DNA of 64,000 bases from a virus. Below, one piece after another: positions 20,548 to 52,832 of this stretch. The position numbers were made by a program, and so were the translations under genes. Positions within the stretch are counted from its first letter, which is position 1. Every line of letters starts with the position of its first letter. Under the pieces are notes generated by a model, which was not told the origin of the DNA, ran no database searches, and was given only the letters and a program-made list of their open reading frames with translations. The stretch lies in the UHGV virus genome UHGV-0279745. One strand, 5' to 3'.

Positions 20548-22068
20548 ATGAAGAACGTTGATGTTGCAGTAATTTACACGGATGGTAGCCATTTGACCTC
20601 CCCGCTCGGTACAGGAGCGGGGATTCATGGATACTTATTTAATCGTGAAGCGATTGAGGATGGTCGGGTTTACCGTCATCCCTCTATTCCCGAGGGGATT
20701 ACGACGTCAGGATACCGCCAGATAAACAAGGATGAAAAACTTCCACCTTTACCAGAAACCGTGGAGTTTATTGACGGTGTTGTGCCTGTACCAAAAATGT
20801 CACACTCCGACGTTGCAGAACTCGTGGCTTTCCTGACCGTCTTCGAACACGCACCTTTCGTTGCCAAAAACTATGTTATCTATATCGATGCCTCTTACGT
20901 TGTCAACACGTATAACGATTGGATTGATGGTTGGGCTGCACGCGGTTGGCGTCGTGCAGACGGTACGCCTATTGCGAACTTGGAATTAATCCAACGGATG
21001 TGGGAGGTTAAACAGCGGTTAAAGAAAGAAGGGAAAGGTATTCGTGTCCTTAAAATTAAAGGGCACTCAGGACGCTATGGAAACGAGCGTGCCGACGAGT
21101 TAGCACGGAAAGGTTCAAGTATTTCGGCTCGAGGTGAGGGGTTAGACTATACACCGTATTGGTCAAAAGACGAGATGCCTGAGGAAGAACAGCAACCAGA
21201 AGTTGTTGGTGAAGGTGTCAATTTGTCTGCTTTTCCCGATATCTGTGTTACGAAGTTCTGTTACCCGATGGTGAACGAACCGCATCCCACTGTTACAGTT
21301 AACGGTAATAAACTTTATTACATGTTCGGTGGGAACCATGCAAAACAGAAGGACGATATCGTCTTCGTTGGTAAGTACATTCCAGATGCACAATTCTGCG
21401 TAATGTTTACCAAAGAACCATGGAACAACGTATACGAGTTGGTAAATACCCACTCTGCGAAAGCGTGGGAAGGGGTGCCCCGTTTACGTCAGTTTGATCC
21501 CATTGCCGTTGTTTTTAACTTATTCGTAAAACGTAAGAAGTTCGCAGAAGCCGCAGGTAACGGTATTCCTGTCGATCGGATGCATTTTAGCGAAGACAAA
21601 AACCTGTGGATGTTTGAAGATCTTTCGATTACACGAATTCTTCGTCCCGCGTTATTGTCTTATCGCTGCATTACGATTCGTGATGAGCTTGCAGGTTGGT
21701 TACGCGATGCCATGGAGGGGAAAAACTCAGTCGTAATGAACGACATTACTGACCTGCTTTACGATGAGAAAGGTAAGCCGAAGAAAGACTTTTATCGTAA
21801 CGTAGATAAAGGTTTTGACGTAACTATCCATATCCCTGGTAGTAAAAACAAGGTTAAAACCATCCTTACTCGAGGTATCGACATACCGACGCGTACGGAA
21901 ATCAACCGTATGAAAGAACCAGAAGGACGATTCTACGTGGCGGTACGGCGTCCAGAACGGCAGTATATCGAGTACGCGTTGGTTTATATTGGGGAAAAAT
22001 ATCATGGGTTGTGGTGTGGCTATTATTCAAACAAACGAATATTGACGGATAAGGAGCTTGAATGCTGA
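20548..22068 (+). CDS. RNase HI-domain protein with about 330-aa C-terminal extension
   Basis: N-terminal RNase H motifs YTDGS ... YIDASYV ... HSGRYGNERADELA; 506 aa total. Confidence 0.65.
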   Translation: MKNVDVAVIYTDGSHLTSPLGTGAGIHGYLFNREAIEDGRVYRHPSIPEGITTSGYRQINKDEKLPPLPETVEFIDGVVPVPKMSHSDVAELVAFLTVFEHAPFVAKNYVIYIDASYVVNTYNDWIDGWAARGWRRADGTPIANLELIQRMWEVKQRLKKEGKGIRVLKIKGHSGRYGNERADELARKGSSISARGEGLDYTPYWSKDEMPEEEQQPEVVGEGVNLSAFPDICVTKFCYPMVNEPHPTVTVNGNKLYYMFGGNHAKQKDDIVFVGKYIPDAQFCVMFTKEPWNNVYELVNTHSAKAWEGVPRLRQFDPIAVVFNLFVKRKKFAEAAGNGIPVDRMHFSEDKNLWMFEDLSITRILRPALLSYRCITIRDELAGWLRDAMEGKNSVVMNDITDLLYDEKGKPKKDFYRNVDKGFDVTIHIPGSKNKVKTILTRGIDIPTRTEINRMKEPEGRFYVAVRRPERQYIEYALVYIGEKYHGLWCGYYSNKRILTDKELEC

Positions 22069-22730
22069 TCGTTTATAGTGAGGTCTTGTCAAAAGCCCCC
22101 CGGTTTTTACAAACTCACTTTATGTATAACGCACGGCAGTATTGGGGCTTTAAAGCCCCTTACTCCGAAGATTGGGAAGTTGTGGAAAAGTTAGCATTTG
22201 TGTTTTCTCTTTCGTTGTTGTGGGAGATCATTGCACTATACAACGCGGGTTGTGATATCCCGGAGAACGGCTTTTTCCAACAACACCTATTCCAAAAATT
22301 CACAGCATCGGTAGAAAATCATGAAGTGCGCAAGGAGTGTATCGGCTACGCAGAGCATTCTGAAGAATTGAGAAAGATTTCCAAATTAGTTATCACGCGG
22401 ACATGGGCTGAATTCGAAACTTACCCCGAAAAAATAATTTGGTTTAATCGTGAACAGTTTATTAAAGAGGCAGTCAGTCAACATCCCGTTCGACTAATCG
22501 TGTTAAAGCCGTCAGATCTCGCCTTACGCCACATCTATTCGTCTCCAGAGGAAATCGTTTTTTCCTCTGGAACAACAGATTATGGTATTTTTAAACAAGG
22601 CGATTCTTGGATTCTTCCACACGATTTAGACGGGTATTTGCTCAGTAGCGATCAAATACATTCGGGTTATGACTCACAGGTGAAGGAGTTTACAGTCGAT
22701 CCTTTTTTCGCTAAAAATATTCTTAGATAG
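22062..22730 (+). CDS. hypothetical protein
   Basis: ORF track; start overlaps upstream stop (ATGCTGA). Confidence 0.55.
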   Translation: MLIVYSEVLSKAPRFLQTHFMYNARQYWGFKAPYSEDWEVVEKLAFVFSLSLLWEIIALYNAGCDIPENGFFQQHLFQKFTASVENHEVRKECIGYAEHSEELRKISKLVITRTWAEFETYPEKIIWFNREQFIKEAVSQHPVRLIVLKPSDLALRHIYSSPEEIVFSSGTTDYGIFKQGDSWILPHDLDGYLLSSDQIHSGYDSQVKEFTVDPFFAKNILR

Positions 22731-23507: not shown

Positions 23508-24049
23508 TGAAAATACTTATCGATTTCTCACTCAGCGAGTCACGGGGCAAATTAAACAAACTGTTAAGTGAGATGCGTAGCCGCGTTGCGTTTGAACTGC
23601 ACGACGCGATAGCAGTACATGAGAACAAGATTTCTGAAGAACACAGTGGGGTCGAAATTACTATCCTGGATTCAGAAGCGATGGTGAATAATCTCATTGA
23701 ACAGTTAGAGCGAAAAATCCATTCGGCCATGACATACCCACATCTAGTGCGGGTAACTGATCCCGATACGGATATTCACCTGATTCTTGAGAAAGCCTTT
23801 CTACATGCCGCGCATTACTTACAGAATAATGCTCCAGATACCCTCGATGAAGTGTATGTCGCCATATTGCAGCGACAATCTTCAACGACGGATATAATAG
23901 ACACAACGTGTTGGAGCGATATTCTTACCAACGAAACAATGTCCCGTATCCGGGATATTTTCCTTGAGACACTCGGGTTAGTTGAGAAAATCTGCCATGC
24001 TGAGCTCATCTACCTGTCATCAAAATACGGTCAACCTAAAGGAGTATAA
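23507..24049 (+). CDS. hypothetical protein
   Basis: ORF track; TAATG stop-start overlap. Confidence 0.6.
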   Translation: MKILIDFSLSESRGKLNKLLSEMRSRVAFELHDAIAVHENKISEEHSGVEITILDSEAMVNNLIEQLERKIHSAMTYPHLVRVTDPDTDIHLILEKAFLHAAHYLQNNAPDTLDEVYVAILQRQSSTTDIIDTTCWSDILTNETMSRIRDIFLETLGLVEKICHAELIYLSSKYGQPKGV

Positions 24050-24051
24050 TC

Positions 24052-24576
24052 GTGGATATTTTAATTCAGCTTCGCAAGAAAACAACCATTGCCACACCGA
24101 TAGCGCTAGAGGAGAAAATCTCTGGTGCGGTTGCACGCAAGCTCTGTGGTGCTCACGGCTTTAGCGACCATCAGGAGCGGGTCGTTACTGTCGCCACATT
24201 ACACAACTTACGACACACAGTACATTACTGTTTAGTTGACAACGTCACCATCACTCTTGATGATAACGTAAATGTCGACCAACTGCGGCGCGAAATTGTC
24301 CACAAGATCGAGGCTTACAATAGACGTTTCGAACGGGCATGTACGCGTTTAACTGATGACGAAGCACTACGAAAACGTTTGAAACTTGAAATTGAATATG
24401 CAGCGCAACGTTATGGGGTTGGCGGTACCGAACCGTGTCTGACCGAACAAGAAATCACGTTAGCAATCGAGGTTTATACCACTCTCTGCTGCGCCATCCT
24501 AAAAGAGACCAACCACGAAATTACAAAAGCGTTGTTAAACACCGCAGACAAAATCACCCCAATTTTAGGACAATAA
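24052..24576 (+). CDS. hypothetical protein
   Basis: ORF track; GTG start with cctaaaggagta RBS. Confidence 0.55.
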   Translation: MDILIQLRKKTTIATPIALEEKISGAVARKLCGAHGFSDHQERVVTVATLHNLRHTVHYCLVDNVTITLDDNVNVDQLRREIVHKIEAYNRRFERACTRLTDDEALRKRLKLEIEYAAQRYGVGGTEPCLTEQEITLAIEVYTTLCCAILKETNHEITKALLNTADKITPILGQ

Positions 24577-24577
24577 A

Positions 24578-25066
24578 ATGAACTTAAATCATAACTTCGA
24601 TATTCGTGACACCGATTTCGTACATGAATTTCTCAATAACGAAACGCGTGTACGAAAAGAAATTGAAGAAAAGTTGACTCCGTTGGTTGTAGACACTCCC
24701 TGGATGGCGGACTACGCCGCGTCCTACTTTTCTTCTCAGAGCTTATTTGGATACATATTTATCATACTTGACTTCTTCGATCCATCAAGCAAGCGCATAA
24801 CAGAAACATACGTTCGGCAACGCCTACGCCACGGTCGCAACGAGTTCTTAAAGAAAGTTTCTGATGCGTACCACATGGGTCGATTCCCTACTCCGCTAGT
24901 CCCTTATACAGAACCGGAATGGGATAAATTTTATACCCGGATTTGGGTTGAAGACTCTCTCTTGAACGAAATCGTAGAAATCATCAAGCGTAACGAAAAC
25001 CAACTTGCTCTGCAACTATGGGAGTGGCTAAAAGCTAATTATCCTGATTACGTCAAAATCGACTAA
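24578..25066 (+). CDS. hypothetical protein
   Basis: ORF track. Confidence 0.6.
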   Translation: MNLNHNFDIRDTDFVHEFLNNETRVRKEIEEKLTPLVVDTPWMADYAASYFSSQSLFGYIFIILDFFDPSSKRITETYVRQRLRHGRNEFLKKVSDAYHMGRFPTPLVPYTEPEWDKFYTRIWVEDSLLNEIVEIIKRNENQLALQLWEWLKANYPDYVKID

Positions 25067-25070
25067 TAGA

Positions 25071-25104
25071 CACCCTAGCTTCGGCTAGGGTTACTTTATT
25101 TTTA
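25071..25104 (+). terminator. intrinsic terminator
   Basis: ccctagc-ttcg-gctaggg plus T-run. Confidence 0.65.
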
Positions 25105-25125
25105 ACCATTTTAGGAGAATAAACC

Positions 25126-26052
25126 ATGTATTTGTACAAAAGTAAAAAAGTAAAAGGTATTAAAGACTGCCTTAGACAAATGGGGTCTCAGCATCTTGAA
25201 AATGTAATGGAAGAAAACCGAATAAAGGAAAATCCTGTCTCGAAATGGATAAAAAAGAATCGTAACCATTTAACCAATGCCTTTATACCTTACGACGCTG
25301 AGTTAGGTCTCAAAGATCCCCGTTCCCTTCACGCACAAACATTAGCAATTGGATGGCTATACGGTGGTGCTTCCTTAATATCCAACCAAGCACTTAGAGA
25401 ACTTGTTTTCGAGACTGAGATGCCCAGTAAATTCCCTGAAGAATGGTTGGACTTTATACCTACCTGGACTGTGGCAATCGACGTAGGTAAAGAGGATGAG
25501 ACTTTCTTTCTCGGCTATCGAAAAAACGGGAATAGAAGGTTTATCATAATTGCTACAAATACTGATTACGGGTTAACAGAAGGCGTTACCACAATTGCCA
25601 CTTGTTCGTTAGAGCTTCGTAGTGCAGGAAACGGGCTTGTGGAAATCGACTATGCCGACGGTGTGGAGAACGAACAAGAAAAGATGCTATGGTTATCTCT
25701 GGCCAAAGCCGCTACTTCGATGATATTTCTGTGCACGCTAATCCCGCCCAATTACAGGGAGTCTTTTAATGATATTAAGTTCAAGGAAATCAAAAAGAAC
25801 GGTAGTATTAGTTACGACGTTAAACCTCGTGAACGCGATGTTAAGATAGATATCACGCCAGGACAAGTGAATTATCTAAAAGGGTTTAACACTGACTTGA
25901 AAACCATGCAGGGTATCAAACATGCTAAGGCTGCCCACATCCGTCGCGCTCACTGGCGCAGATATTGGGTCGGCCCTAGAAATGGTGAAAGAAAAAGAAA
26001 ACTTTGTTGGATTCCACCTACATTTGTCCGTGGCTACGTACCCCACAATTAA
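25126..26052 (+). CDS. hypothetical protein, tandem paralog family B member 1
   Basis: ORF track; C-terminal AHIRRAHWRRYW..W.PP motif shared with next gene. Confidence 0.65.
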   Translation: MYLYKSKKVKGIKDCLRQMGSQHLENVMEENRIKENPVSKWIKKNRNHLTNAFIPYDAELGLKDPRSLHAQTLAIGWLYGGASLISNQALRELVFETEMPSKFPEEWLDFIPTWTVAIDVGKEDETFFLGYRKNGNRRFIIIATNTDYGLTEGVTTIATCSLELRSAGNGLVEIDYADGVENEQEKMLWLSLAKAATSMIFLCTLIPPNYRESFNDIKFKEIKKNGSISYDVKPRERDVKIDITPGQVNYLKGFNTDLKTMQGIKHAKAAHIRRAHWRRYWVGPRNGERKRKLCWIPPTFVRGYVPHN

Positions 26053-26076
26053 GCTAAAGTGTTTAGGAGTATTAAA

Positions 26077-26976
26077 ATGACAACGAATAATAGACTTTAC
26101 GGGAAAGCGCTAAGACGCATGAGCGAACAAATAGAAAAGGCACACCAAACAATTCACGGATTAGATCAGTGTCGTTTTATTCGGTTCATTAACGAGCATA
26201 AACGTCAAATACCCGTAACGTTTATACCAGTTAAAGATCCGACCTATCGTGAGTATGGCGTTACAGAACAGATTCCCAGACTGATTAAGCAGTCTCTGGG
26301 ACTAGGATGGCAATACGCTGCTGTTGAAATCATCTCGGATGAAGAACTGATGGCGCTCTTAGCAAAAACTGAGAGACTAAAAAATATCCCGTACTTCTGG
26401 ATAGAAACCATCCCTTCATTTACTTTCTCGGTTACTGTAAATCTCGACGAAAGTCCAATCACGTTATTTATCGGAAGACGTCTTTACGAAGGTGAAGAAG
26501 TTCTCTTTGTGATGTCATGCGAAGAACATGGCGAGTCGGTATACATGGAGTTTGAGATTTACACGATCGACAAAAGTAATGATGATTTCGTGGAGTTAAA
26601 GCCGCTCCTTACTTCGGTTAAGGAGAATCAACGACTACTCGACGCGGTCTACATCGGGCTATATCTTTCATCACGAATTAAGCGAACCGAACGTGAGAAG
26701 AAAGAATTTCGCGGAAGGTCCATTCGTTATGTTCCTGATACAGAAATTCGCCCACGTAGTGAAGCAGTCGTTTTAGATGTAAGTCCGGTACAATGGGAAG
26801 ATATAGAGCAGCAACGCAAGGAAGGACACGAGGTTTGTTTGGCGATTTATTGCGCCGCACATATCCGTCGTGCGCATTGGAAGCGTGTATGGTGTGGTAA
26901 AATGTCAGAAATGCGCTGGCGCGAATGGCGATGGATAGCGCCGAGTTACATTTCTGGATTTTATCGTGGGAAATAA
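26077..26976 (+). CDS. hypothetical protein, tandem paralog family B member 2
   Basis: ATG 26077 with gtttaggagtattaaa RBS; C-terminal AHIRRAHWKRVW motif. Confidence 0.65.
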   Translation: MTTNNRLYGKALRRMSEQIEKAHQTIHGLDQCRFIRFINEHKRQIPVTFIPVKDPTYREYGVTEQIPRLIKQSLGLGWQYAAVEIISDEELMALLAKTERLKNIPYFWIETIPSFTFSVTVNLDESPITLFIGRRLYEGEEVLFVMSCEEHGESVYMEFEIYTIDKSNDDFVELKPLLTSVKENQRLLDAVYIGLYLSSRIKRTEREKKEFRGRSIRYVPDTEIRPRSEAVVLDVSPVQWEDIEQQRKEGHEVCLAIYCAAHIRRAHWKRVWCGKMSEMRWREWRWIAPSYISGFYRGK

Positions 26977-26984
26977 ATAGTTTA

Positions 26985-27030
26985 CCCCTAGACCGTGTGG
27001 TCTAGGGGTAACTTTACTTTTTTATTTTTT
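26985..27030. terminator. bidirectional intrinsic terminator between convergent genes
   Basis: cccctagacc-gtgt-ggtctagggg with T-runs on both sides. Confidence 0.65.
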
Positions 27031-27777
27031 GTTTGCCTTAAGCGCTTTTAAGCGTTCGGCAGTAACGTTCAGGCATTCGATTAACTCGTTAACCTGTTTC
27101 ATGAACAGACCAAACAGCTCCACCCAATCGGATGCAAAATCTAACATCATCGTCAGTTCTTTTGCTACATTCGGATGAATGTTTTGTTCAGACAAGATTT
27201 CCGACGTAGTGCGAATGGACTCGATTGACTTGTCGATGTTCGTCCGTAAACGTTTCGTAATTTCAACGTTCAGGGCTTTAGCACGATTAAACGCAACGTC
27301 AATCTCAGACGCGCTGTGGTACGTCTTCTCAATTGGTCGCTGGTCAATAACGTTATTAGTGTACGATTTCGCTAATAAGTTAACCAGGTCTTTCGGGTTA
27401 ACATTACGTAACGGCAAATTAACGTTTTTGTAACGGAAACCAATCGGTAATGACAGTACCCCCACATCATGTGTAAGGGCCGAAAGTTGTTTATCGACCG
27501 GCAGCAGAATACCCGTATAGATGTTTTGTAGTGAACTCCATACGGATTCTAAGCGGTTCAAATGATCCATCACGTAGGTATTAAAACCAGGTGGGACGAT
27601 AACCAACATTCCCGCAAAGTGTAGGAATTTTTCTTGTTGCATCCACTTGGAAACGTCCGACATCTCGTCATAAGTGGTTAATGCAATCTCTTGTTGAGGG
27701 CCGCTAAACCCTTTCGGTAAGATTGCAGACGCTTTAGCGGCGAAGCTAGATAACGCTGCAAGTGGATTTACATTCAT
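27022..27777 (-). CDS. hypothetical protein
   Basis: ORF track; GAGGT RBS on minus strand. Confidence 0.6.
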   Translation of the reverse strand: MNVNPLAALSSFAAKASAILPKGFSGPQQEIALTTYDEMSDVSKWMQQEKFLHFAGMLVIVPPGFNTYVMDHLNRLESVWSSLQNIYTGILLPVDKQLSALTHDVGVLSLPIGFRYKNVNLPLRNVNPKDLVNLLAKSYTNNVIDQRPIEKTYHSASEIDVAFNRAKALNVEITKRLRTNIDKSIESIRTTSEILSEQNIHPNVAKELTMMLDFASDWVELFGLFMKQVNELIECLNVTAERLKALKANKK

Positions 27778-41829: not shown

Positions 41830-44001
41830 TTAACGTGCTTGCGGCAAGAAGATGTTCGCGATCTGGCGTGCTGGAAGCACATCAAACGCAGAGTTAATAA
41901 AACTGCCCTGTGACCACGCAGATGCCCAGTTCTGCGCCCAAATGCTTCCTTGGATCTTGGCACGCTCTATACCGTTCGTACGTTCGTACAACGTCGCTGC
42001 GCCCAAACACGCCATAAACTCACTGAATTTATTATCGTCGTCCCAAACACCTGTGTCTGTAACGATGGGCATATACATCACACGGGACAAATCACGGATG
42101 GTAACATTGATATCACAAGACAGTGGAACAGAATCACCTGGTCGCCAACCTAAACCACCCACACCGAATTGTAAAGACAAAGACGTTACGATAGCGTTAC
42201 GGAACGAGAATCGACCTTGTGAGTAACACTCCAGATAAAACGGATGAGTGAATGATTGCTTACCCGTCGCAATTGGACATACTGCGGCGATCCAGAAGGA
42301 CAGTGGGACTAGAATTTCCTGGAAGATATCCAGGTCACTTCCCGACCATGCACGTAAAGGTATTGTCAAGTTAATATCATCGCCCGAGGCATCTGAACTG
42401 TCCCACACCTCTGGGAAGTCAATGACGGATGAATTATATAACGACATAATCCCCGTTAGATGCAACGTATCTGCTAACCCACGCATTACGGACTTAAAGC
42501 CCGTAATTAATGAATCGACCGCGTTGAAGCCGGTTTGCCCGCCGGACAAGTTTACTTCAAGTTGACGAGCTTTCGCCGTCATTGAGTTAACTGTGCTAGA
42601 GATCTCCGGCTCTTTTGTAGAATTAGAGAACGAACGAGAGACGGTGTCCTTCCCATCGATTCTCCAGGTTACCCACTGAGAACCGTTGTAGATTTCGGAC
42701 AGCGCCTGTGCTTTAATCCCTTCAATCTGTTCGCCAACCACTTTAACAAAGTCGCCGAAGAACGTCTCCATAGTCGATTCTTTACCTTTATCCGCCCAGG
42801 ACTGTATCGTATTCTGTTGTCCCTCGGTGAGGTTACTCGCATCGGCATTTTCCAAATCCTCATTCATTTTGTTTTGGATTTCTGCCGCCTGCGCCTCTAG
42901 GTCGCTTGCCGTTCCCCCAGTTTGTAACCCGGAACTAAACGCATCGAGAACCCCTTTCTCCAGTTCATCAACGCTGTTAATATCTTTACCCGACGCGTCT
43001 TTCGCCGCATAACCACCGCGTTCGGAAGCGGCTAACCGTTCCATGTCTTGCAAAGAAACTTCGTAATTTCTCACATCGTCAGAATACGAAGCTGCACCAT
43101 ACGTGCTATCCAGATAGAAATTTCGTATCCGCTCGGCGAGTTCGTCGTCACTTGAGGACTGCTTACGAAGCTCTTTTAAACGTTGATTCTGATAGTTCGC
43201 CAAAGTTTGATAACGGTTGATCATCTTAAAGACATCGAATTCACCGCCCTTTTTCCAAACCTCCGGTAACGCTTCAAAAGCCTCATCGCGTGCTTTTTTG
43301 TTCCCTTTTCCATCTCCGTCTTGACTGACCTGGAAGGTACCTAAGATACCCGTAGGAACCAAACGACGATAAACAAGTTGCGTATTCAAGATGTTCTGTA
43401 CAGCACGCAAATACAGATGCATCGTCGGTTTAACGTAATAATAACGCGACGTTTCTTTATTCAACGCTGCCGCGAGAATGCGTGGAGTAATTAAAATTAC
43501 CGCAAAAGCGACAGTACCCACCGTTGCCCATATCGCTGCCGCGCCGATATAACTTGCTATCGTACGGATCATTCCCGGATAGTCACCCGTACGCGCTAAA
43601 TATGCTAAGTTGGAATCGTACATATTCGCAAAGAACGCGGCCATGCCCAGATATTTCGGCTTTCCGAAACGGCAATGTACGTAAAACGAATTTTGGTTAA
43701 TACTTTCGTAATAATACGTCCCTAAGCGATAAGAAGCGGTTGGCATACCGTTAGCCAACGCCTTTTTCTCCGCCTCACGATTACCGGGTCGTGCAAATGC
43801 CCCAGTTGATGGGGGGTCTGCAAACCACGTAAACTGCGGAGGGCTATTAATCGCTTTACTACCGCCCATGGTCGTATCTTCAAAAGACATCATACCGTTA
43901 GAGTAGCGTCGCAAGGCCAGAAAACGTTCATCTCGGCCTTCCAACTCTCCCTTAAATAGATTTCTGACCCAGCTTGAGTCGTTAGCTGATCTAGCGTCCA
44001 C
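41830..44001 (-). CDS. hypothetical large protein (probable virion protein)
   Basis: ORF track; GTG start with AGAGG RBS; 723 aa. Confidence 0.65.
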   Translation of the reverse strand: MDARSANDSSWVRNLFKGELEGRDERFLALRRYSNGMMSFEDTTMGGSKAINSPPQFTWFADPPSTGAFARPGNREAEKKALANGMPTASYRLGTYYYESINQNSFYVHCRFGKPKYLGMAAFFANMYDSNLAYLARTGDYPGMIRTIASYIGAAAIWATVGTVAFAVILITPRILAAALNKETSRYYYVKPTMHLYLRAVQNILNTQLVYRRLVPTGILGTFQVSQDGDGKGNKKARDEAFEALPEVWKKGGEFDVFKMINRYQTLANYQNQRLKELRKQSSSDDELAERIRNFYLDSTYGAASYSDDVRNYEVSLQDMERLAASERGGYAAKDASGKDINSVDELEKGVLDAFSSGLQTGGTASDLEAQAAEIQNKMNEDLENADASNLTEGQQNTIQSWADKGKESTMETFFGDFVKVVGEQIEGIKAQALSEIYNGSQWVTWRIDGKDTVSRSFSNSTKEPEISSTVNSMTAKARQLEVNLSGGQTGFNAVDSLITGFKSVMRGLADTLHLTGIMSLYNSSVIDFPEVWDSSDASGDDINLTIPLRAWSGSDLDIFQEILVPLSFWIAAVCPIATGKQSFTHPFYLECYSQGRFSFRNAIVTSLSLQFGVGGLGWRPGDSVPLSCDINVTIRDLSRVMYMPIVTDTGVWDDDNKFSEFMACLGAATLYERTNGIERAKIQGSIWAQNWASAWSQGSFINSAFDVLPARQIANIFLPQAR

Positions 44002-44049: not shown

Positions 44050-47000
44050 TTACGCCGATTTACGACTAACGTCGAGTTGTGGCGCTGGTTGGGTTATTGA
44101 CACGTTACGTGACGCCGAACCCGGAGCGGTTGACGCAGGGTTAGCCGGTCCGTTTTGCATAGCCTGTGGTCGCTGACGAAGAATTGTTACAATCTCTTTC
44201 AGGTAGCCCGCAGACTCTTTTGCAACCGCCAGCTGCTGTACGCTGATCGGATCACCGCTGTTCACTGTAGAGCCGGTCTGTGCATCGGAAGTTACTGTTG
44301 GTGCAGGGCGGACTGATTTCTCCATCTGCTGTCTAGCACCTTCTTTTACTTTAGCAACATCCTCTTCGGCCAGGCCGTCAGCACGAGCATTTTGACCCAC
44401 CGTATCTACAACAACTGACGCATCACTCGGTGTCACGTCGCCGCCGGGGCTCGGCACCGCCGGACCACCGCCCGTCGCAGCTTTAATGTCATCGGCCCCC
44501 ATTGCACCTTTATCTGCTAAGGCTGTGTCACGATTCGCCTCGTTCGCAGCTGGCAGGTTATCTGCCGGGCCTGTGATGGACGGATCGTTAGCAGCGCCCG
44601 CAGCGATGGCTGGGGATGACGGCATTGGCGTTACGCCAGTCGTCAAGTCTTTCACCGATGCCTGATTGCCCGCAATTGCGTTTGTTCCTACTGCACCAAT
44701 CTTACCACCCATGATGCTGAGCACTTCATCCAAACTACGCAATTTTCCATTCTTGTAGAAAATTGTGCTGTTTGCCGCGATTTGATCGGCCGATGCACCA
44801 CGCGATGACGGACCGTTCGGATCACGCTTCCATTCTTGCAGGAATTTCTTACCGCCACCTTGTCCTAAGAAGTGGTAGAGGTAAACTGCCGCACCGGGAG
44901 GATCGATGCCACCTAAATCCTTTCTGGCTTTCTCGATATTGTCACGAATATGGCGGACACCAAGCAGGGCATTCGCCCACGGGTCATACTGGTCGGTTTG
45001 CGGGATACCGTAACGTCTAGCGTAAGCTTTCATCTGCTCACTCCAGGTACCGTTGATGAACTGGAACAAGCCAGCTGCAGAACTTCCTTTAGCTTTGATG
45101 CCGTATCTAAGTCCTGATTCTGCTTGTGCCATTCCCAGCGCTAACGCTGGAGGAACACCCATCATCTTCGCTACGTCTATAATCAGTGCTGCGACCGCAT
45201 TCAGGTTAGGCTTCAATCCGTCACCCAACGTTGAAATTGGATACTTAGCCGCTAACGTTTTATAATCACCGTCTTGCATCTCGCCAAGCTTCACACCGAA
45301 GTTACCGGTACTAAACGCGGCGTAATTCTTAGCCCCCATCTGACCATAAGCACCAGCCAAATCGTTTGGCGTGCCGTAATTACCACCGTCATTCGCTGCC
45401 GGTTGAAGCAGATCGCGATAAGAGGAGGAAGTATTCATCTGTTGCCGAGGTGGTTGGTCCTTCTCGTCATCGGTCAAGAACATCTGAGTCGCACGATCTT
45501 TTCGCTGCCAGTTCACACGGAAACCAGCAGAAGGCGTAGCACGCAGCGTTTTACGTACTGCCAAATCAGCTTCCTTAGACAGTTCTTTCAGGTTCTCTAA
45601 CTCCGTTGCAACTGAACCAGCGTCAGTGTTAGCATCACCCCCTAACGGGTTAAACGGTACCTCCCACACCGATTGGCGAATACCCCCTTTCAGGTTGTAC
45701 GCACCACGCATCATCAGTGCGATTTCATACAAGAACCCGCCTGTAACGCGTAGGTCCATCGGATCGGCAGCAGGGACATAACGTTTCACCCCAACCACGT
45801 ACGTCATGAAGACAGGTAAGAAGCGGTTATAGAACCAGTTCTTGTACCGATCTTCTTTTGGTCCACCAATAGCGTCAGGTGCAATCACTGCAATCGCACG
45901 TTTCCAGTCTCCTTTATACGTACAACTTTTCACATCAGTGTCTTGCAACACTTGACGTTCTAGGAGCGTATAGAGGTTACGGGTTGTTTGAGTAATGCTC
46001 ACCGCACCATAAGCTTTCAACCTTACAGATTCCAAATCACGGAGATCGGTTTCTTTAGGTAAGCTTCTCCAGTCAACTTGAACCTGAACTTGTTCGGTGC
46101 CGTCTTCCCAACCTTCAACCTTTGCAACCTCTTTGTTGCGTTCCGCATCCGCTTGAGCCAACGCTTGGGTCGATTCCGCCACAGAAGCAACTTTGTGTCC
46201 TTCGGCCACGCTGCCCGTAGCATTTACATCCTTACGTTTTTCATCACGACGCATGTTAATCGAACGAAGCACGCGTTCTTGTGCTTCAACGACTTCTTCA
46301 CCTGACAAAAACTCGGCCGGGGTAAACGTTACGAAATCCCACGCTTTAGAGAACCAACCTTGGTTAACCTTGCGGGGGTCTTCTAATGCACGGAATGCAG
46401 GTGCGTCTTTCGACATCTTCATTTTGTTAAAGATGTTCAACATGTCTGCTTTCGACACTTTCGCTGGATTACCGACGTCTGCTAACGCGATATCGTTATC
46501 CATCGATTTCAGTGCCGTAATCCAACGTAAGTAAATAGGCACAAAACGTTGTAGCATAAACGCACTAAACGCCAGCATTTCGCCTTTGTCTTCTACGTTA
46601 GTACCAAACCCTTCGGCCAGTTTCTTCACATCGTCACCAGACAAACCACGCAGCTGCGCTTGACCGTTCTCTGTATAAGAGATATACGGTTTCAAGTTGT
46701 CTTCTAAATAACGTGCTTTTGCACCGTCGTCGGAAGACCATTCATCATGGTCTCTAAAACCGTACTGCGCCAATCGCATGTTATCTAGGTACTGGGCATT
46801 TACACGATCTTTAGTTTTATAATAAAACCACGTTAACCCTGCGCCAGCGGCTACCAAACCGATAATCGGCCAGCCAACCGCAGTTACCACTGCAGATGCA
46901 GCTGTCGCGACAGCACTCACCGCAGGGACAGCCAAACGGGTCACGGCAAACTTACCAACGTTCCACAACGCTTTGCCTGCAAATCCGACCGGCTTGAAGA

Positions 47001-50000
47001 TTCCCCATTTTGCAAGTTTACCTAAGATTGAACCCACTGTGCCTAAAATACTCACGATTGGTCCTACCAACGGCAATCCTTTAAGGAAATCCATTACCCC
47101 ACGTTTACCACCTTTCTTCTCAGCCTCTTTCTTAGCCTTTTCCTCTTCCTTAGAACGCCGACGGCGTCGGAAGAACTGGAAGTAATCGCGTTTTTCATCA
47201 CTGGCAGGCGGCTTATTGCGTTGGCCGAACTTACTGAACATAGTTCTTAACAAACCTTCCGAAGCACCTGCTTTTTCCGCAGAATCACGCATGGTGTTAA
47301 ACCATGACATTTCCTGAAGATTAACCATTCGGTTCAGGCGTTCCAGTAAAGCTGACCCAACGCTACGGGCTTTCTGTTTCCCTTTATTAATCACACGTCC
47401 AGCGCTATCCGTTACGGTGTCTAAGTCTTCTTTTGCCGCATCGATGATACGTGTTTTAGACACCTTGCCTCTTGCGTAGATGTGCTGACGATAAAACTCA
47501 GCAACATCGTCATCGCGTCCTGCTAAACGACTCTCCATTCGATAACGTGTGCCGATATCGTAACGTGGGTCTCGGAAAGTATCGACCATATCGCTTGCAC
47601 GGCCACGGAAACGATCAAACCAACCACGTGCGGCACCGCCCCAACGAGAAAGACGACCACCTACCGCACTGCGATAACGGGACATTCTGTCACGCATCCG
47701 ACCACGCCAATCCCGGAACCCCTGAAAATGTTCACGGAACCCATCACGTATGTCTTTAGCACGTTGGAATAATCCTTTAACTGAGCTGGCTCCCGTATTC
47801 CGTTCCATCTGTTCTGTCCAGGTATCATCTTCTGGTTCACCTGGCAATCTCCGGTTAAGGAGTTTGTAGATACGGATTAAGATGTGGTTAGTTTTACGGC
47901 CGTTCGACCATGAGAACACACTAAACCCACCACCAGAACCCCCTTCCTTACGGTTCTGCCACCAACGTGTCAGAGGGTTATCAGAAGCCAACTCTTTGAG
48001 CTTCTCAAATCCGCGTTTTGCATTGTTCCACAAACGTGCTGGCATTCCCGTTACACGGGAAATCATGCTTTGTAAACGGGTTTTCTCTGCACCCTCTGGA
48101 ACCTCATTTAACCACTCGCGTGCTTTCTCGAACAACGAAGCCGCTTTAGGCGAAATGAAACCCAGAAGTTTCTTCGGTAAAGTCACAGCTTTGTTTACCG
48201 CCGTTCCTGCTTTCCCAGAAATGTACTGGAAAAGCGCTTGAACTTTACCACCTTTGTAGAAACGCAGTTTACCTGCGGCAGCCAAATCAGCAGCAGCTAA
48301 GATTAAATTACCCGCTTCATCGACGATGTCACGTCCCAGTTTAATATCGTCGAGAGTTTTAAGTTGAATCAGCTTCTCAGTTTTCGGGTCAGCCTGGTAA
48401 TATTCCCCAGCTTCTAAACGACTTCCTTGTAATACGACGTTGCCACGTTCATCGTAGATGTCGCGAACGCCTAAAACACCTTTACCGAAAGCTACGGCAG
48501 AATTCCAACCCGTCGATAATGTACCGGTTACTAACCCTTTCAGTCGGCTAAATACGCCGGGACCTTCGGAGGAACCGCCTGAGAATTTCCCACGAATAAA
48601 ACCACCTAATGCTTGTAGGCGATCTTTCCCACGTAGGAACAGATTCTTACCAAACCGTCCTACACCAGAACCGGTATCCCAAAGCACTCCAGCCCAGCGA
48701 CGTAACAAACCTGTCTCGCCTAGTACAATACGTTTGCGCTTACGACGACGTTTACGGCCCGATTCACTCGAACTTTCAGGTTCGTCGCCGTCATCACGAC
48801 TACCGCCTAAACTGGCTAGAAGAATACCTTCCTCATCCATGTTCTTAACGTGTTTGAGGATATCTTGCACGGTGCTAGATTCAGGCTGTTTACGTACGGC
48901 ATCAATCAATCGATCGAACTGTTGTTCCAGCCCGGCGTTCGTATCTGGACGGCTGCTTAAGAGCTCAACAAAGTTGGTAGATTTCTCTCCATAAAGTACC
49001 GCAGCGAGTTGACGGGCGCTTAAACCACGACCGCGACCACCTTTTCCACCACCACGTACGTTGGACAGTTCTTTGTCTTCAAAGCTCGGCTCTGCTCCTG
49101 CACCCATCCGACGCAAGTAATCACCCAACGCAGAACCATTTTGCAGCTTACGTTGAATCTCTTGCTCACGGGTTAACGAACGGCCAGAACGGGTCTTACC
49201 CATCGACAGGTCGTTAAATAGCGTATAGGGATCGTTAATGTCCTTATCGACTTCGAAAATGTCGTTCTTCGCATCGTATTTAAAAATACCGGAATCGCGA
49301 AGTGCGTTCTCGCCGTAAATCACAGACGCAGCATCAACCGTGTCTTGACGTGCACGAATCGTTGACTGAATAGCGGCTATTTTGTTTGAAATCGCATTAC
49401 TCAGTTCATGGTGACCGCCAACCAGTTCCGCAGAACGGGCTTCTAAAACACCCTGAATCGCTTCCACAGCGTTTGCGTTCATGTAACGATACATGTGCAT
49501 CGGGTCTTTCAATAAAGACCCTACATCGAACGCTTTCCCTTCCGAGGCACGAGACTCGATGTAGTCCGCTAACGCCTGACGTGTTTTCCTATCGAGCGTT
49601 TTATCTTTATCGATAAAGTCGACAGTGTCGTTGATGTACGTCTGTAAACGTTTGCGCTGATCGTCATTAGCAACGGCCTTACGTACACGATTACCAATAA
49701 CTTTGCGATCAACCATACCGCGCGTGGTCAGGTCGTATACCTGATCGTGGTGTTCGCCATACCCACGACGAATAGATTTGTTAATCTCGGACAGTAACGT
49801 CGGAATAACTTCGGTGATACTAAGGTAAGCTTTACGATCGAATTTCGCTGCGGCAGAAAGAGATTCCGCAGAGCGATCGTCTAATGCTAAGGTTTCGCGA
49901 CGTAGCGGGTTAACTAGCCCCAATTCGTGCATTAGTCGAAACAGATCAGCTAACGGACCGCTTGTTTCTCCCGCTATTGCCGAGTTAGAAATAGACGACA

Positions 50001-51174
50001 AATTTCCAAAGCCATACTTCGCCAACTGTAGGCGTTTCATGACTTCTGGGTTTTTCTCTAACTCGCCACGGGTCCAGTTCTGAAGACGCTCGATCTGGGG
50101 TTGTAAGAGACGTTTTGCTAACCAACCACCTGCAAAACCTGCCGCTTTATTACGCGAGTTTGTGTTACGACGGTCAGGAGACAACGATGAGCTGTCCGAC
50201 ATGTCAAAGTCATCTTCCTGAGCCATCCCTAGAACTTGTTCTAGAATCCCACGACCATCACTAAAGATGTTCGAGATTTTCTTCTTCGCGTTTTCGCGAA
50301 TCTGACCAATGAAATTATCTGCGTAGTGTAAGGGGTTCATCCACTCCGCAGCTTTACGTTTTACATTAGCCCAACGAATTTCAGAAAACTCTTCCTTCGC
50401 GTAGTCGGGTAGTGCCGTGTTCTTAACGATGGCTTCTAATGCCGGGGTGTTGCGTGCAAACTCGTCTTGTTTGAGTTTCGCAATATCCTGCAAAGCAAAC
50501 AATGTCCGATATTGCAGCTCTAACTGCTTACGCTGAACATTCAACAACACGCCACGACTTAAGCTAGTCGTTAAGTTGACGTCTTTTGCAATACCGATTA
50601 CGGTCTGGAACAGCGCGTCGGACTTCATGTCCTTAATCGTGTCGCGCAAGCGGTCTTCAACCATCCCCTCTTGCGCCTCACGTTGCTGGTCCGCTGTTTG
50701 CGGTGCACCTGAGAACACGCTGTCCAGCTCACGATCCATCATCGCTTGTTTAGGATCGTAATTCCCATAGTCGATTTGATCGTTACGTGCCCACTTGTCG
50801 ATTTTCCGTGTTACGGATTCCGGTAAATACCGTTTCAGTGTTGGGCCTAACTGTCTCGCTTGCATCTTAACGACGCGAGACGTCTTTTCAATCTCGTCTT
50901 TCGTATGGGCCAGAATGTCTTGACCTGCGGCTTTAACGTTTTGATAGCCTTCGTAGGCTTCTGCCGCAGGTTTAGGCATCCCTTTTAAAATAACCTGATC
51001 ACGTTTGTTTTCGGGCCAGATAGTCGACAACGCCGACTTACGGGCAGCACGAAATGTGTCCATGACCGGGTTACGCGATTGGTCTTGTTGACGAGGGGGC
51101 TCATCAAAATCGTCCCAGTCGTCCATGTTATCAAGATCGATTTCATCGAAATCATCTTTACCTTTTTTAGCCAT
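44050..51174 (-). CDS. giant virion-type protein (2374 aa) with transmembrane segments and C-terminal lytic transglycosylase (SLT) domain
   Basis: Uninterrupted 7.1-kb ORF; SLT motif GMAQAESGLRYG...GLFQF encoded about 44830..45160; Gly/Ala-rich hydrophobic helices about 46800..47090; acidic N-terminus. Confidence 0.8.
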   Translation of the reverse strand: MAKKGKDDFDEIDLDNMDDWDDFDEPPRQQDQSRNPVMDTFRAARKSALSTIWPENKRDQVILKGMPKPAAEAYEGYQNVKAAGQDILAHTKDEIEKTSRVVKMQARQLGPTLKRYLPESVTRKIDKWARNDQIDYGNYDPKQAMMDRELDSVFSGAPQTADQQREAQEGMVEDRLRDTIKDMKSDALFQTVIGIAKDVNLTTSLSRGVLLNVQRKQLELQYRTLFALQDIAKLKQDEFARNTPALEAIVKNTALPDYAKEEFSEIRWANVKRKAAEWMNPLHYADNFIGQIRENAKKKISNIFSDGRGILEQVLGMAQEDDFDMSDSSSLSPDRRNTNSRNKAAGFAGGWLAKRLLQPQIERLQNWTRGELEKNPEVMKRLQLAKYGFGNLSSISNSAIAGETSGPLADLFRLMHELGLVNPLRRETLALDDRSAESLSAAAKFDRKAYLSITEVIPTLLSEINKSIRRGYGEHHDQVYDLTTRGMVDRKVIGNRVRKAVANDDQRKRLQTYINDTVDFIDKDKTLDRKTRQALADYIESRASEGKAFDVGSLLKDPMHMYRYMNANAVEAIQGVLEARSAELVGGHHELSNAISNKIAAIQSTIRARQDTVDAASVIYGENALRDSGIFKYDAKNDIFEVDKDINDPYTLFNDLSMGKTRSGRSLTREQEIQRKLQNGSALGDYLRRMGAGAEPSFEDKELSNVRGGGKGGRGRGLSARQLAAVLYGEKSTNFVELLSSRPDTNAGLEQQFDRLIDAVRKQPESSTVQDILKHVKNMDEEGILLASLGGSRDDGDEPESSSESGRKRRRKRKRIVLGETGLLRRWAGVLWDTGSGVGRFGKNLFLRGKDRLQALGGFIRGKFSGGSSEGPGVFSRLKGLVTGTLSTGWNSAVAFGKGVLGVRDIYDERGNVVLQGSRLEAGEYYQADPKTEKLIQLKTLDDIKLGRDIVDEAGNLILAAADLAAAGKLRFYKGGKVQALFQYISGKAGTAVNKAVTLPKKLLGFISPKAASLFEKAREWLNEVPEGAEKTRLQSMISRVTGMPARLWNNAKRGFEKLKELASDNPLTRWWQNRKEGGSGGGFSVFSWSNGRKTNHILIRIYKLLNRRLPGEPEDDTWTEQMERNTGASSVKGLFQRAKDIRDGFREHFQGFRDWRGRMRDRMSRYRSAVGGRLSRWGGAARGWFDRFRGRASDMVDTFRDPRYDIGTRYRMESRLAGRDDDVAEFYRQHIYARGKVSKTRIIDAAKEDLDTVTDSAGRVINKGKQKARSVGSALLERLNRMVNLQEMSWFNTMRDSAEKAGASEGLLRTMFSKFGQRNKPPASDEKRDYFQFFRRRRRSKEEEKAKKEAEKKGGKRGVMDFLKGLPLVGPIVSILGTVGSILGKLAKWGIFKPVGFAGKALWNVGKFAVTRLAVPAVSAVATAASAVVTAVGWPIIGLVAAGAGLTWFYYKTKDRVNAQYLDNMRLAQYGFRDHDEWSSDDGAKARYLEDNLKPYISYTENGQAQLRGLSGDDVKKLAEGFGTNVEDKGEMLAFSAFMLQRFVPIYLRWITALKSMDNDIALADVGNPAKVSKADMLNIFNKMKMSKDAPAFRALEDPRKVNQGWFSKAWDFVTFTPAEFLSGEEVVEAQERVLRSINMRRDEKRKDVNATGSVAEGHKVASVAESTQALAQADAERNKEVAKVEGWEDGTEQVQVQVDWRSLPKETDLRDLESVRLKAYGAVSITQTTRNLYTLLERQVLQDTDVKSCTYKGDWKRAIAVIAPDAIGGPKEDRYKNWFYNRFLPVFMTYVVGVKRYVPAADPMDLRVTGGFLYEIALMMRGAYNLKGGIRQSVWEVPFNPLGGDANTDAGSVATELENLKELSKEADLAVRKTLRATPSAGFRVNWQRKDRATQMFLTDDEKDQPPRQQMNTSSSYRDLLQPAANDGGNYGTPNDLAGAYGQMGAKNYAAFSTGNFGVKLGEMQDGDYKTLAAKYPISTLGDGLKPNLNAVAALIIDVAKMMGVPPALALGMAQAESGLRYGIKAKGSSAAGLFQFINGTWSEQMKAYARRYGIPQTDQYDPWANALLGVRHIRDNIEKARKDLGGIDPPGAAVYLYHFLGQGGGKKFLQEWKRDPNGPSSRGASADQIAANSTIFYKNGKLRSLDEVLSIMGGKIGAVGTNAIAGNQASVKDLTTGVTPMPSSPAIAAGAANDPSITGPADNLPAANEANRDTALADKGAMGADDIKAATGGGPAVPSPGGDVTPSDASVVVDTVGQNARADGLAEEDVAKVKEGARQQMEKSVRPAPTVTSDAQTGSTVNSGDPISVQQLAVAKESAGYLKEIVTILRQRPQAMQNGPANPASTAPGSASRNVSITQPAPQLDVSRKSA

Positions 51175-51203: not shown

Positions 51204-52823
51204 GTGAATAAACTTAATTGGGTTGACTTTTATCTGCTCAATGTAAACAAGTCTCTTGTGTCGCGATTACGACCCGTCACGACCACGGATACTTTCCAGG
51301 GGTTAACAAAAAACTTTCACCCCGAAGGTCTTTACTCTACAGAGATATTTGGACTCACGGGGAGTGAAGCGCGAGACTCTACTTTCTCTTATATCGATAT
51401 TAAACTCGATATCATTTCGCCGACGGTGTGTTTGGCGTTATTCCAACTCAAACAACTCTACGAAGAAATTTGTTCTGGAAAACGCTACGCAACGTGGAGC
51501 GAAAAAGAAAAAGATTTCGAACCGGCCTTGCCGGGAGACCCAGGCGCAGATACCGGTTTTAACTTCTTCCTCAGTCACTATAACGATTTAAAACCTAAGC
51601 GTAACGAGTCCCTACAACGTGACGAAACCGTGGATTTCTTTTTGAAATTCCGTCCCGTTAGTCTTAGTCGATACGTTCTCGTGTTACCCGCGGGTTTACG
51701 CGATTTAGTAATTCGACAAGATGGTAGAGAACAGGAAGAAGAAATCGGCGGGATGTATCGTCGGTTGGTATCACTCGCCAGGGCGATCCCTGACCGAGCA
51801 ACCCGTGTTGAATTAACTAACCCCGTACGCTGGAAGCTGCAACAAACCTTCAACGATATCTGGATGTATTTCTTTAACATCCAAGACGGTAAAGGGGGTT
51901 TCCAACGTCGTAAAGTGACGTCTCGTAAATTAATGAACGGGACACGTAACGTACTGTCCTCATTCTCGACGGGGTCTAAGTGCATGGGTCGTGAAGACGC
52001 TATTCGTCCCACCGACACCAAAATTGGTTTATACCAGGGCTTAAAAGCGTTACTCCCCGTTGCGCAATACCAGATACGTGAACGTTACCTCGGTAACATC
52101 CGTGCTGGTGACGGCAACCTTTACGGCGTAAACACCAAAACCCTTAAACGTGAATTCTTGGAAGTAGGTGGTCGTGTATACGACACATTCACCACCGACG
52201 ATGGGATTGAATCCTTAATCAACCGAATGGAAGCTCGCGAGCTTCGCCATCAGCCGATTATGTTGGACGACACCCACTACGTTGCGTTGGTTTACCAAGA
52301 CACCAAACATTTTAAGGTGTTCTACGATATTGAAGAACTTCCTAAAACGTTTGACCGAAAATTCGTCCACGGTATGACGCTCGTCGAATTGCTTTATTTG
52401 TCGGGCTACGAGCTTTGGAACGATTATTTCGGTTTCGTTACACGTTATCCCGTTACAGGCCGAGGCTCGACGTATTCATCGACCATAAGATTGGAGACCA
52501 CCACATCATCTTTATACTTAAAAGAACTGGAAGATGACTGGGAAACTGAAAAACCCCGAGGGGCTATCAGCTACCCTGACCGGTCGGTTCCTACCTTCGT
52601 TGAGTCGATGGCACCACACCCTTCACGCTTAGGTGGCTTAGGGGGTGACTACGACGGCGATACCGGGTCGTTTAACGCGCCTATGTCCCAGGAAGCACTC
52701 GAGGAAAACCGGAATTGGATACACTCGAAAAACTACTGGTTCGATTCTGATGGGAACTTTAAAATCAATCCTATCAACAACGTGATTAAACGTGCAACGC
52801 AAGCGTTATTAAAGAACCCATAA
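51204..52823 (+). CDS. multisubunit RNA polymerase beta-prime-like subunit (N-terminal catalytic fragment), putative
   Basis: GTG start with CAGGAG RBS; aa 482-486 DYDGD (nt 52647..52661) followed by NAPMSQEALEE, matching the beta-prime NADFDGD...PL..EA..EA active-site region. Confidence 0.5.
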   Translation: MNKLNWVDFYLLNVNKSLVSRLRPVTTTDTFQGLTKNFHPEGLYSTEIFGLTGSEARDSTFSYIDIKLDIISPTVCLALFQLKQLYEEICSGKRYATWSEKEKDFEPALPGDPGADTGFNFFLSHYNDLKPKRNESLQRDETVDFFLKFRPVSLSRYVLVLPAGLRDLVIRQDGREQEEEIGGMYRRLVSLARAIPDRATRVELTNPVRWKLQQTFNDIWMYFFNIQDGKGGFQRRKVTSRKLMNGTRNVLSSFSTGSKCMGREDAIRPTDTKIGLYQGLKALLPVAQYQIRERYLGNIRAGDGNLYGVNTKTLKREFLEVGGRVYDTFTTDDGIESLINRMEARELRHQPIMLDDTHYVALVYQDTKHFKVFYDIEELPKTFDRKFVHGMTLVELLYLSGYELWNDYFGFVTRYPVTGRGSTYSSTIRLETTTSSLYLKELEDDWETEKPRGAISYPDRSVPTFVESMAPHPSRLGGLGGDYDGDTGSFNAPMSQEALEENRNWIHSKNYWFDSDGNFKINPINNVIKRATQALLKNP

Positions 52824-52832
52824 GGCTAAGCA

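Follow-up and report, generated by a model that had tools for sequence, protein, structure and literature searches.

The gene pair and its transcription unit

Two adjacent genes in a 64,000-nucleotide stretch of the virus genome UHGV-0279745 (this whole stretch is referred to below as the window) encode divergent proteins of about 300 amino acids (aa), which we assign from their sequences, with near certainty, to the AcrVA2-like/FinQ family (PF26125). Copy A (308 aa, starting with ATG) lies at 25126-26052 and copy B (299 aa from its best start, also an ATG) at 26077-26976, both on the forward (+) strand. The first-pass annotation of this region had described a tandem paralog pair of this size, and both open reading frames (ORFs) are indeed found where it placed them. 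A BLASTP comparison of A with B gives 25% identity over 283 columns with E=1e-22, and because this is far past chance, the two are true paralogs, copy B being the divergent extra member.

Each gene has a Shine-Dalgarno sequence of its own: an AGGAG (25113-25117, +) stands 8 nucleotides (nt) 5' of the copy A ATG, and a second AGGAG (26065-26069, +) stands 7 nt 5' of the ATG at 26077. The ORF list also offers a longer frame for copy B that opens with GTG (26059-26976, 305 aa). Because an AGGAG stands 7 nt before the ATG at 26077 and gene callers picked the same start in related contigs (proteins P0004, 299 aa, and P0005, 294 aa), ATG 26077 is most likely the start of copy B, and its residues are numbered accordingly. 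Only 24 nt separate the stop codon of copy A from this ATG. Upstream of the pair, an intrinsic-terminator-like hairpin with an 8-bp stem, five GC pairs and a following T-run (25072-25091, +) ends the preceding gene (24578-25066) and would form the 5' boundary of the unit, and downstream of it a strong bidirectional hairpin with a 13-bp stem, seven GC pairs and T-runs on both strands (26982-27011), common to copy B and the convergent gene 27022-27777, would form the 3' boundary. Given the 24-nt gap, the hairpin before copy A and the strong hairpin after copy B, the two genes look like one bicistronic, terminator-bracketed unit holding the two paralogs alone. The hairpins come from a simple consensus scan whose sites across the whole region do not exceed shuffled expectation, so these boundaries are suggestive.

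Assignment to the AcrVA2-like/FinQ family

When copy A alone was compared with the PDB sequences using phmmer, it matched AcrVA2 (7ci1) with E=1.3e-4, residues 262-302 of copy A aligning with 278-317 of 7ci1; the aligned tails read HIRRAHWRRYWVG...CWIPPTFV in copy A and HIRRGHWHGYWQG...RWQPAVFV in AcrVA2. Profile comparisons covered more of the protein. A profile of 13 jumbo-phage sequences matches AcrVA2 over about 200 residues (profile positions 100-296, E=1.8e-7), and a profile of 93 sequences matches it end to end (9-310 of 315 positions, E=1.2e-46). The latter alignment was drawn from the matches of an exhaustive hidden Markov model (HMM) search that took the window proteins and close relatives as its seed and returned 2,559 cluster representatives at E≤1e-3, mostly of 300-350 aa. 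As a guard against circularity, a leave-out profile was built from 82 members outside the jumbo-phage clade, all of them ≤23% identical to A or B; it scored copy A at 93 bits, copy B at 62 bits and AcrVA2 at 164 bits, and picked out no other ORF of the window. By these comparisons both copies are full-length AcrVA2 homologs, even at the approximately 13% identity that a structural alignment gives between copy A and AcrVA2.

The same family appears in precomputed annotations, where PF26125 ‘AcrVA2-like’ tags are attached to P0001 (95% identical to copy A) and P0004 (98% identical to copy B), as well as to both genes of the pair in the related contigs L007 and L010-L014; unmarked tags of this kind denote E≤1e-5. 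PHROG 6160, a family of unknown function, also matches both proteins (E=5.6e-36 for A and 1.8e-18 for B). The first-pass annotation had been unable to name a family and held that membership of a well-characterised one would overturn its reading; both proteins are AcrVA2-like/FinQ members, and its statement on this point has to be withdrawn.

Other searches were less informative. A local Pfam scan found nothing for A or B and gave no PF26125 match for nine other members, so the model is apparently absent there. NCBIfam and PADLOC scans of A and B yielded nothing meaningful, and matches of the two proteins to AAA_19 (E=0.26) and Csx19 (E=0.019) were set aside as noise. Word-indexed protein searches retrieved 3, 2, and 7 relatives, and the family became visible only by the exhaustive search of representatives. 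A query for ‘PF26125’ in PubMed Central and bioRxiv had no literature match.

Conserved residues, domains and the basic tail

AcrVA2 recognises the N-terminal polypeptide of Cas12a (LSKT motif) and triggers a translation-dependent loss of cas12a mRNA, an effect that depends on neither the promoter nor the codon usage (Marino et al., bioRxiv 10.1101/2022.11.29.518452). Three of its residues are critical at this step, as the substitutions H286A, R288A, and H291A abolish the downregulation of Cas12a mRNA and protein and leave stable binding of Cas12a intact; W79A and D89A cause partial loss of function (bioRxiv 10.1101/2022.11.29.518452).

The first-pass annotation had drawn attention to nearly identical, basic and Trp-rich C-terminal segments, and these are borne out. 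Both proteins contain HIRRAHW (25936-25956, +, in copy A; 26860-26880, +, in copy B) within a shared pattern, AAHIRRAHW(R/K)R.W.G...W(I)(P/A)P, and the tails read AAHIRRAHWRRYWVGP...CWIPP in copy A and AAHIRRAHWKRVWCGK...RWIAP in copy B. These 46-residue tails are strongly basic, with isoelectric points (pI) of 11.8 (A) and 10.3 (B), and hold three and five Trp residues, respectively, whereas outside the tail the two proteins are neutral to acidic, at pI 6.9 (A) and 5.6 (B). The weight that had been placed on the motif proved well placed. The core HIRR[AG]HW is identical in the pair and in AcrVA2, and H271, R273, and H276 of copy A, equivalent to H262, R264, and H267 of copy B, correspond to H286, R288, and H291 of AcrVA2 (residues were mapped with PDB chain numbers equal to the paper's numbers plus 1). 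These are the sole invariant columns of the 93-sequence family alignment (93/93). The invariant triad coincides with the AcrVA2 residues needed for mRNA downregulation, and therefore this tail is the effector signature of the family. No further ORF matching the family profile or the motif H.R..H[WFY] was found in the 64-kb window.

Conservation extends to the N-terminal half. The short motif reported there is present in both proteins, reading LGLGWQYAA in copy B; in copy A the wording needs correction, since an I precedes the G (LAIGWLYGG, not LGWLYGG). W77 of copy A (25354-25356, +) and W78 of copy B (26308-26310, +), each lying within this motif, correspond to W79 of AcrVA2, a position occupied by W in 90/93 family sequences. 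Ten residues past W78, D88 of copy B is the equivalent of AcrVA2 D89, at which copy A has N87; in the family, this column is D in 62/93 and N in 10/93. Thus the conserved Trp is kept in both copies, and the Asp is kept in B and conservatively replaced in A.

The predicted layout of copy A comprises a helical N-terminal part, a central β-sheet (MID) domain (residues 121-215; 25486-25770, +), and a small C-terminal domain with four predicted β-strands that is formed by the basic Trp-rich tail (residues 263-308; 25912-26049, +). According to this model, copy A has the three-domain fold of AcrVA2, and four C-terminal strands have also been described for a modelled AcrVA2 homolog. The central domain is the putative target-recognition region and is the most allele-variable segment of the protein.

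Genomic setting and relatives

From its gene content, the window belongs to a phiKZ-like jumbo phage. Two hallmarks of such phages are the split β-type subunits of a multisubunit RNA polymerase (RNAP), encoded by two adjacent genes (51204-56999; PHROG 2986 and 3148), and the 2,374-aa tail-fiber/transglycosylase protein encoded next to them (44050-51174, -). A virion protein of about 722-723 aa (41830-44001, -), placed in PHROG 3181 (‘unknown function’), matches the solved virion proteins tail tube initiator complex gp203 (E=6e-59), capsid decorator gp77, and PHIKZ182. This ORF was considered as a candidate chimallin and ruled out, being a phiKZ gp182-like/tail-tube-initiator homolog. The window also encodes a UvsX-like recombinase, an SbcC-like protein, and thymidylate synthase. 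Approximately 3-5 kb upstream of the pair lie a 3'-5' exoribonuclease-like gene (Rv2179c-like, PF16473; 19811-20545) and a gene for an RNase H fusion protein of 506 aa, whose C-terminal extension is long and uncharacterised (20548-22068), both of them syntenic in relatives.

The order RNase H, small genes, AcrVA2-like gene, convergent 251-aa gene, 99-aa gene, and UvsX-like gene is common to the window, Erwinia phage Asesino, the SPN3US-like EC001, ChrisDB, and pEa_SNUABM_4. Copy A is the syntenic ortholog of Asesino gp235, EC001 MGA_211, and ChrisDB gp236; these genes and the pEa_SNUABM genes likewise belong to PHROG 6160 and are all annotated as hypothetical. They differ from the window in being single-copy. 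Homologs of Asesino gp235 were identified by tblastn in 78 phage records and, among the matches listed, all are in Enterobacterales phages of 235-305 kb, with Erwinia, Dickeya, Serratia, Klebsiella, Salmonella, and Escherichia as host genera. Asesino has been experimentally shown to be a nucleus-forming chimallivirus, and by analogy the phage of the window is probably nucleus-forming as well.

All of the close relatives examined (the metagenomic contigs L007 and L010-L014, plus L017) carry the tandem pair, and among the phages examined copy B was found only in this lineage. A megablast search of the locus against the phage collection gave no match, so there is no close sequenced phage in that collection. 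L017 (NZ_CP134650.1, 28517-39434) belongs to a circular record of 222,441 bp, ‘plasmid unnamed1’, from strain 51A:C of Enterobacter ludwigii, whose source was a gull cloaca. It has the RNase H ... AcrVA2-like pair ... UvsX-like order, with a copy A that is 69% identical, and the record is apparently the genome of a jumbo phage deposited as a plasmid, which offers a host hint for the lineage. Other annotated homologs include gp231 of the Erwinia phage Special G (Agricanvirus; L016, 3194-4222), a 342-aa ‘putative protein FinQ’ in a different neighbourhood near an RNAP β subunit gene, and a RisingSun homolog labelled ‘putative mycothiosynthase’, probably a mis-annotation.

Evolution of the pair

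In a neighbour-joining tree, copy A groups with the single-copy syntenic orthologs (bootstrap 84) and copy B falls outside them. Two readings of this placement are possible, namely that copy B stems from an old duplication followed by loss elsewhere, or that it is a fast-evolving duplicate. Both copies are under purifying selection. The ratio of nonsynonymous to synonymous divergence (dN/dS) of copy A is 0.08-0.11 against relatives that are 94-95% identical, and copy B differs from the 98%-identical allele of L015 at 33 synonymous and 7 nonsynonymous codons.

Both genes are allelically mosaic, with the differences mostly in the N-terminal and central β-sheet domains. In contigs whose copy A is 94-95% identical to that of the window, copy B is just 62-63% identical, with saturated synonymous divergence (dS), and the copy A of L007 is only 70% identical to the window copy. 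Along the DNA, identity is approximately 80-93% in the backbone, falls to 57-72% over the 5' two-thirds of the variable alleles, and rises toward their 3' ends. By domain, identity between alleles is lowest in the central β-sheet region, at 48-49% (48% for A vs L007), compared with 98% in the copy A tail and 67% in the copy B tail. The variation is thus concentrated where, to judge from the crystal complex and published predictions, AcrVA2 binds its peptide.

Several observations concern exchange and variability around the locus. Copy A (window 25051-25950) has 93-96% DNA identity with L012, L013, and L010, at a dS of ~0.3, and is closer than the flanking genes, the downstream 251-aa gene having a dS of ~1.0. 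Its similarity, higher than that of the conserved neighbours, suggests that these phages recently exchanged the A allele by recombination. Three small uncharacterised genes immediately upstream of the pair (22051-22650, 23551-23950, and 24601-25000) are hypervariable between genomes that are otherwise alike, with 47-68% DNA identity vs 80-93% in the backbone; the 162-aa gene among them shows 40-65% protein identity, and a 174-aa gene (window 24052-24576) is absent from L010.

Proposed function and alternative explanations

The two characterised relatives offer models for what the pair might do. In addition to AcrVA2, the homolog FinQ carries a conserved HxR motif and a similar C-terminal domain (bioRxiv 10.1101/2022.11.29.518452). 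It is found on IncI1 and F-like plasmids such as R820a, and lowers the transcripts of the F tra operon. Plasmids and ‘megaphages’ carry orthologs of the family, in most cases where no Cas12a is present (Marino et al., bioRxiv 10.1101/2022.11.29.518452). The window proteins resemble AcrVA2 in length (~300-323 aa), in their collinear full-length homology, in having a helical N-terminal part followed by a central β-sheet domain and then a small C-terminal one, and in keeping H286, R288, H291, and W79 in both copies. Unlike AcrVA2, which is encoded in a Moraxella bovoculi prophage (structures 7ci1 and 7ci2), they form a diverged tandem pair in a lytic phiKZ-like jumbo phage with a probable Enterobacterales host, and no acrVA1 or aca gene is adjacent. 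The likeness to FinQ, drawn from published descriptions, lies in the HxR motif and the C-terminal domain. FinQ, by contrast, is plasmid-borne and acts on conjugation genes, whereas the genome that holds the pair is that of a phage, with genes for RNAP, virion, and tail proteins; a tblastn search of plasmids with copy A returned only the 222-kb mis-filed jumbo phage, as its one strong match, and two marginal matches.

By analogy with these relatives, we favour, with moderate confidence, a role for the pair in target-specific, translation-coupled mRNA silencing of two targets other than Cas12a. Each paralog would act in the host cytoplasm, its variable N-terminal and central part would recognise a specific polypeptide during its exit from the ribosome, whereupon the basic H/R/H tail, which is conserved, would trigger the loss of the target's mRNA. 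The two paralogs, and their alleles, may have different targets, and proteins encoded by the host (for defence or other functions) or by competing mobile elements would be more likely candidates than Cas12a.

That one or both proteins are genuine type V-A anti-CRISPRs (Acrs), binding the host's nascent Cas12a and destroying its mRNA as AcrVA2 does, is a reading with some appeal, given the AcrVA2 homology and the retention of the essential H/R/H triad and W79, and Al-Shayeb et al. proposed that those proteins of huge phages which cluster with AcrVA2 may act as Acrs. We nevertheless consider it quite improbable. The homologs listed from the 78 records are all in jumbo phages of Enterobacterales, the nearest isolate-linked relative comes from the Enterobacter ludwigii assembly, and in such hosts the CRISPR systems are typically of type I, not ones with Cas12a. 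A Pfam scan of the neighbours found no helix-turn-helix or aca-like gene, and the gene belongs to a conserved syntenic backbone rather than to an accessory acr island. In addition, identity to AcrVA2 is only ~13%, and among the AcrVA2 residues in contact with the Cas12a 620-636 peptide both copies retain E98 alone: D129 falls in a gap, and at D195 copy A has A and copy B has L. This interface is reportedly dispensable in vivo (bioRxiv 10.1101/2022.11.29.518452). Orthologs are, moreover, typically found where Cas12a is absent (Marino et al., bioRxiv 10.1101/2022.11.29.518452). Because of the Enterobacterales hosts, the missing acr/aca locus, the unconserved contact residues, and the occurrence of the family mostly without Cas12a, Cas12a is an unlikely target, and the putative target of the pair is probably another protein. 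It is also rather unlikely, in our judgement, that the proteins are nucleic-acid-binding regulators, as the first-pass annotation proposed and as the classical view of FinQ would have it, the tail binding DNA or RNA and causing sequence-specific termination or decay without recognition of a nascent peptide. The tail has a pI of 10.3-11.8 and several aromatic residues, and in AcrVA2 the H/R/H tail is needed for the mRNA effect and not for protein binding, a role compatible with a tail directed at RNA or the ribosome; nucleic-acid binding by the tail is putative. To our knowledge, however, such binding has been shown for no AcrVA2-like/FinQ member, and the defining activity of the family is polypeptide recognition.

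The pair might instead serve the phage's own regulation, shutting off its own proteins, for example early ones, co-translationally rather than silencing the genes of hosts or competitors. In several jumbo-phage genera copy A keeps the same site amid genes for replication and recombination (RNase H, UvsX-like), which would fit such a role, and translation in nucleus-forming phages is reportedly cytoplasmic and uncoupled from transcription (PMC12908238), which makes a translation-coupled control step conceivable. We regard self-regulation as unlikely, since the strong allelic mosaicism (A at 70% vs 95%, B at 62% vs 98%) between otherwise similar genomes is more typical of conflict genes than of housekeeping regulators, and the action of AcrVA2 and of FinQ, the two relatives characterised so far, is directed at host defence or at other genetic elements. 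Least of all do we expect that one copy is a decaying, functionless duplicate. Copy B would be the most likely candidate, being more divergent, placed outside the ortholog group in the tree, without a direct PDB sequence match, and poorly folded by AlphaFold from a shallow alignment. Yet its frame is intact, with its own AGGAG and ATG, it retains the complete H/R/H triad together with the W and D, and it is present in every related contig examined; the 33 synonymous vs 7 nonsynonymous codon differences from L015 largely refute decay.

Several points weigh against target-specific silencing as we propose it, or against steps on which it depends. The mechanism is carried over from one characterised protein, AcrVA2, which is described in a preprint and whose route of mRNA decay is unexplained, and the activity, target, and localisation of the jumbo-phage members are proposed by analogy. 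At the position of AcrVA2 D89, mutation of which causes a moderate loss of function, copy A has N87. The structural evidence is uneven: the copy A model is only moderately confident (predicted local distance difference test score, pLDDT, of 73), a Foldseek search of the PDB did not recover 7ci1, and because the AlphaFold model of copy B, built from a shallow alignment, is unusable (pLDDT 48), the fold of that protein is argued from sequence. Copy B alone had no match among PDB sequences and is linked to the family through profiles, and its tail, the putative effector, is less conserved between alleles (67%) than that of copy A (98%). The age of the duplication is uncertain, given a neighbour-joining tree with long branches and a bootstrap of 84. 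Finally, no chimallin was found in the window, and the phage nucleus is supposed by analogy with Asesino.

A broader extension of the silencing model is more tentative, and we offer it as a possibility that at present we would not favour over its negation. The pair may constitute a retargetable nascent-peptide gene-silencing system, and not an anti-CRISPR, in a nucleus-forming phage whose DNA would already be out of reach of DNA-targeting immunity. On this view each paralog would detect its own, different host or competitor polypeptide on the ribosome through its variable N-terminal and central domain, mRNA loss would follow from the action of the invariant H/R/H tail, and new specificities would arise by duplication together with cassette-like exchange of recognition domains between phages.

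Implications

As annotation, the pair resolves to a family that is already known, having a Pfam entry and having been noted before in huge phages; what is added here is the conserved tandem pair, its apparent organisation as a bicistron, and allelic variation localised to particular domains. No prokaryotic protein other than AcrVA2 has so far been reported to silence a specific gene via the nascent polypeptide and elimination of the mRNA. Thousands of family members occur outside Cas12a hosts, and a conserved, duplicated, and allele-variable pair in a lytic phiKZ-like phage is a tractable place to seek non-Cas12a targets, and comparison of copy A with copy B, and of alleles that differ mainly in the central domain, allows mapping of the specificity domain. 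If the pair is indeed a retargetable silencing system, it would represent a general phage strategy of counter-defence or host takeover, with two natural specificity variants side by side.

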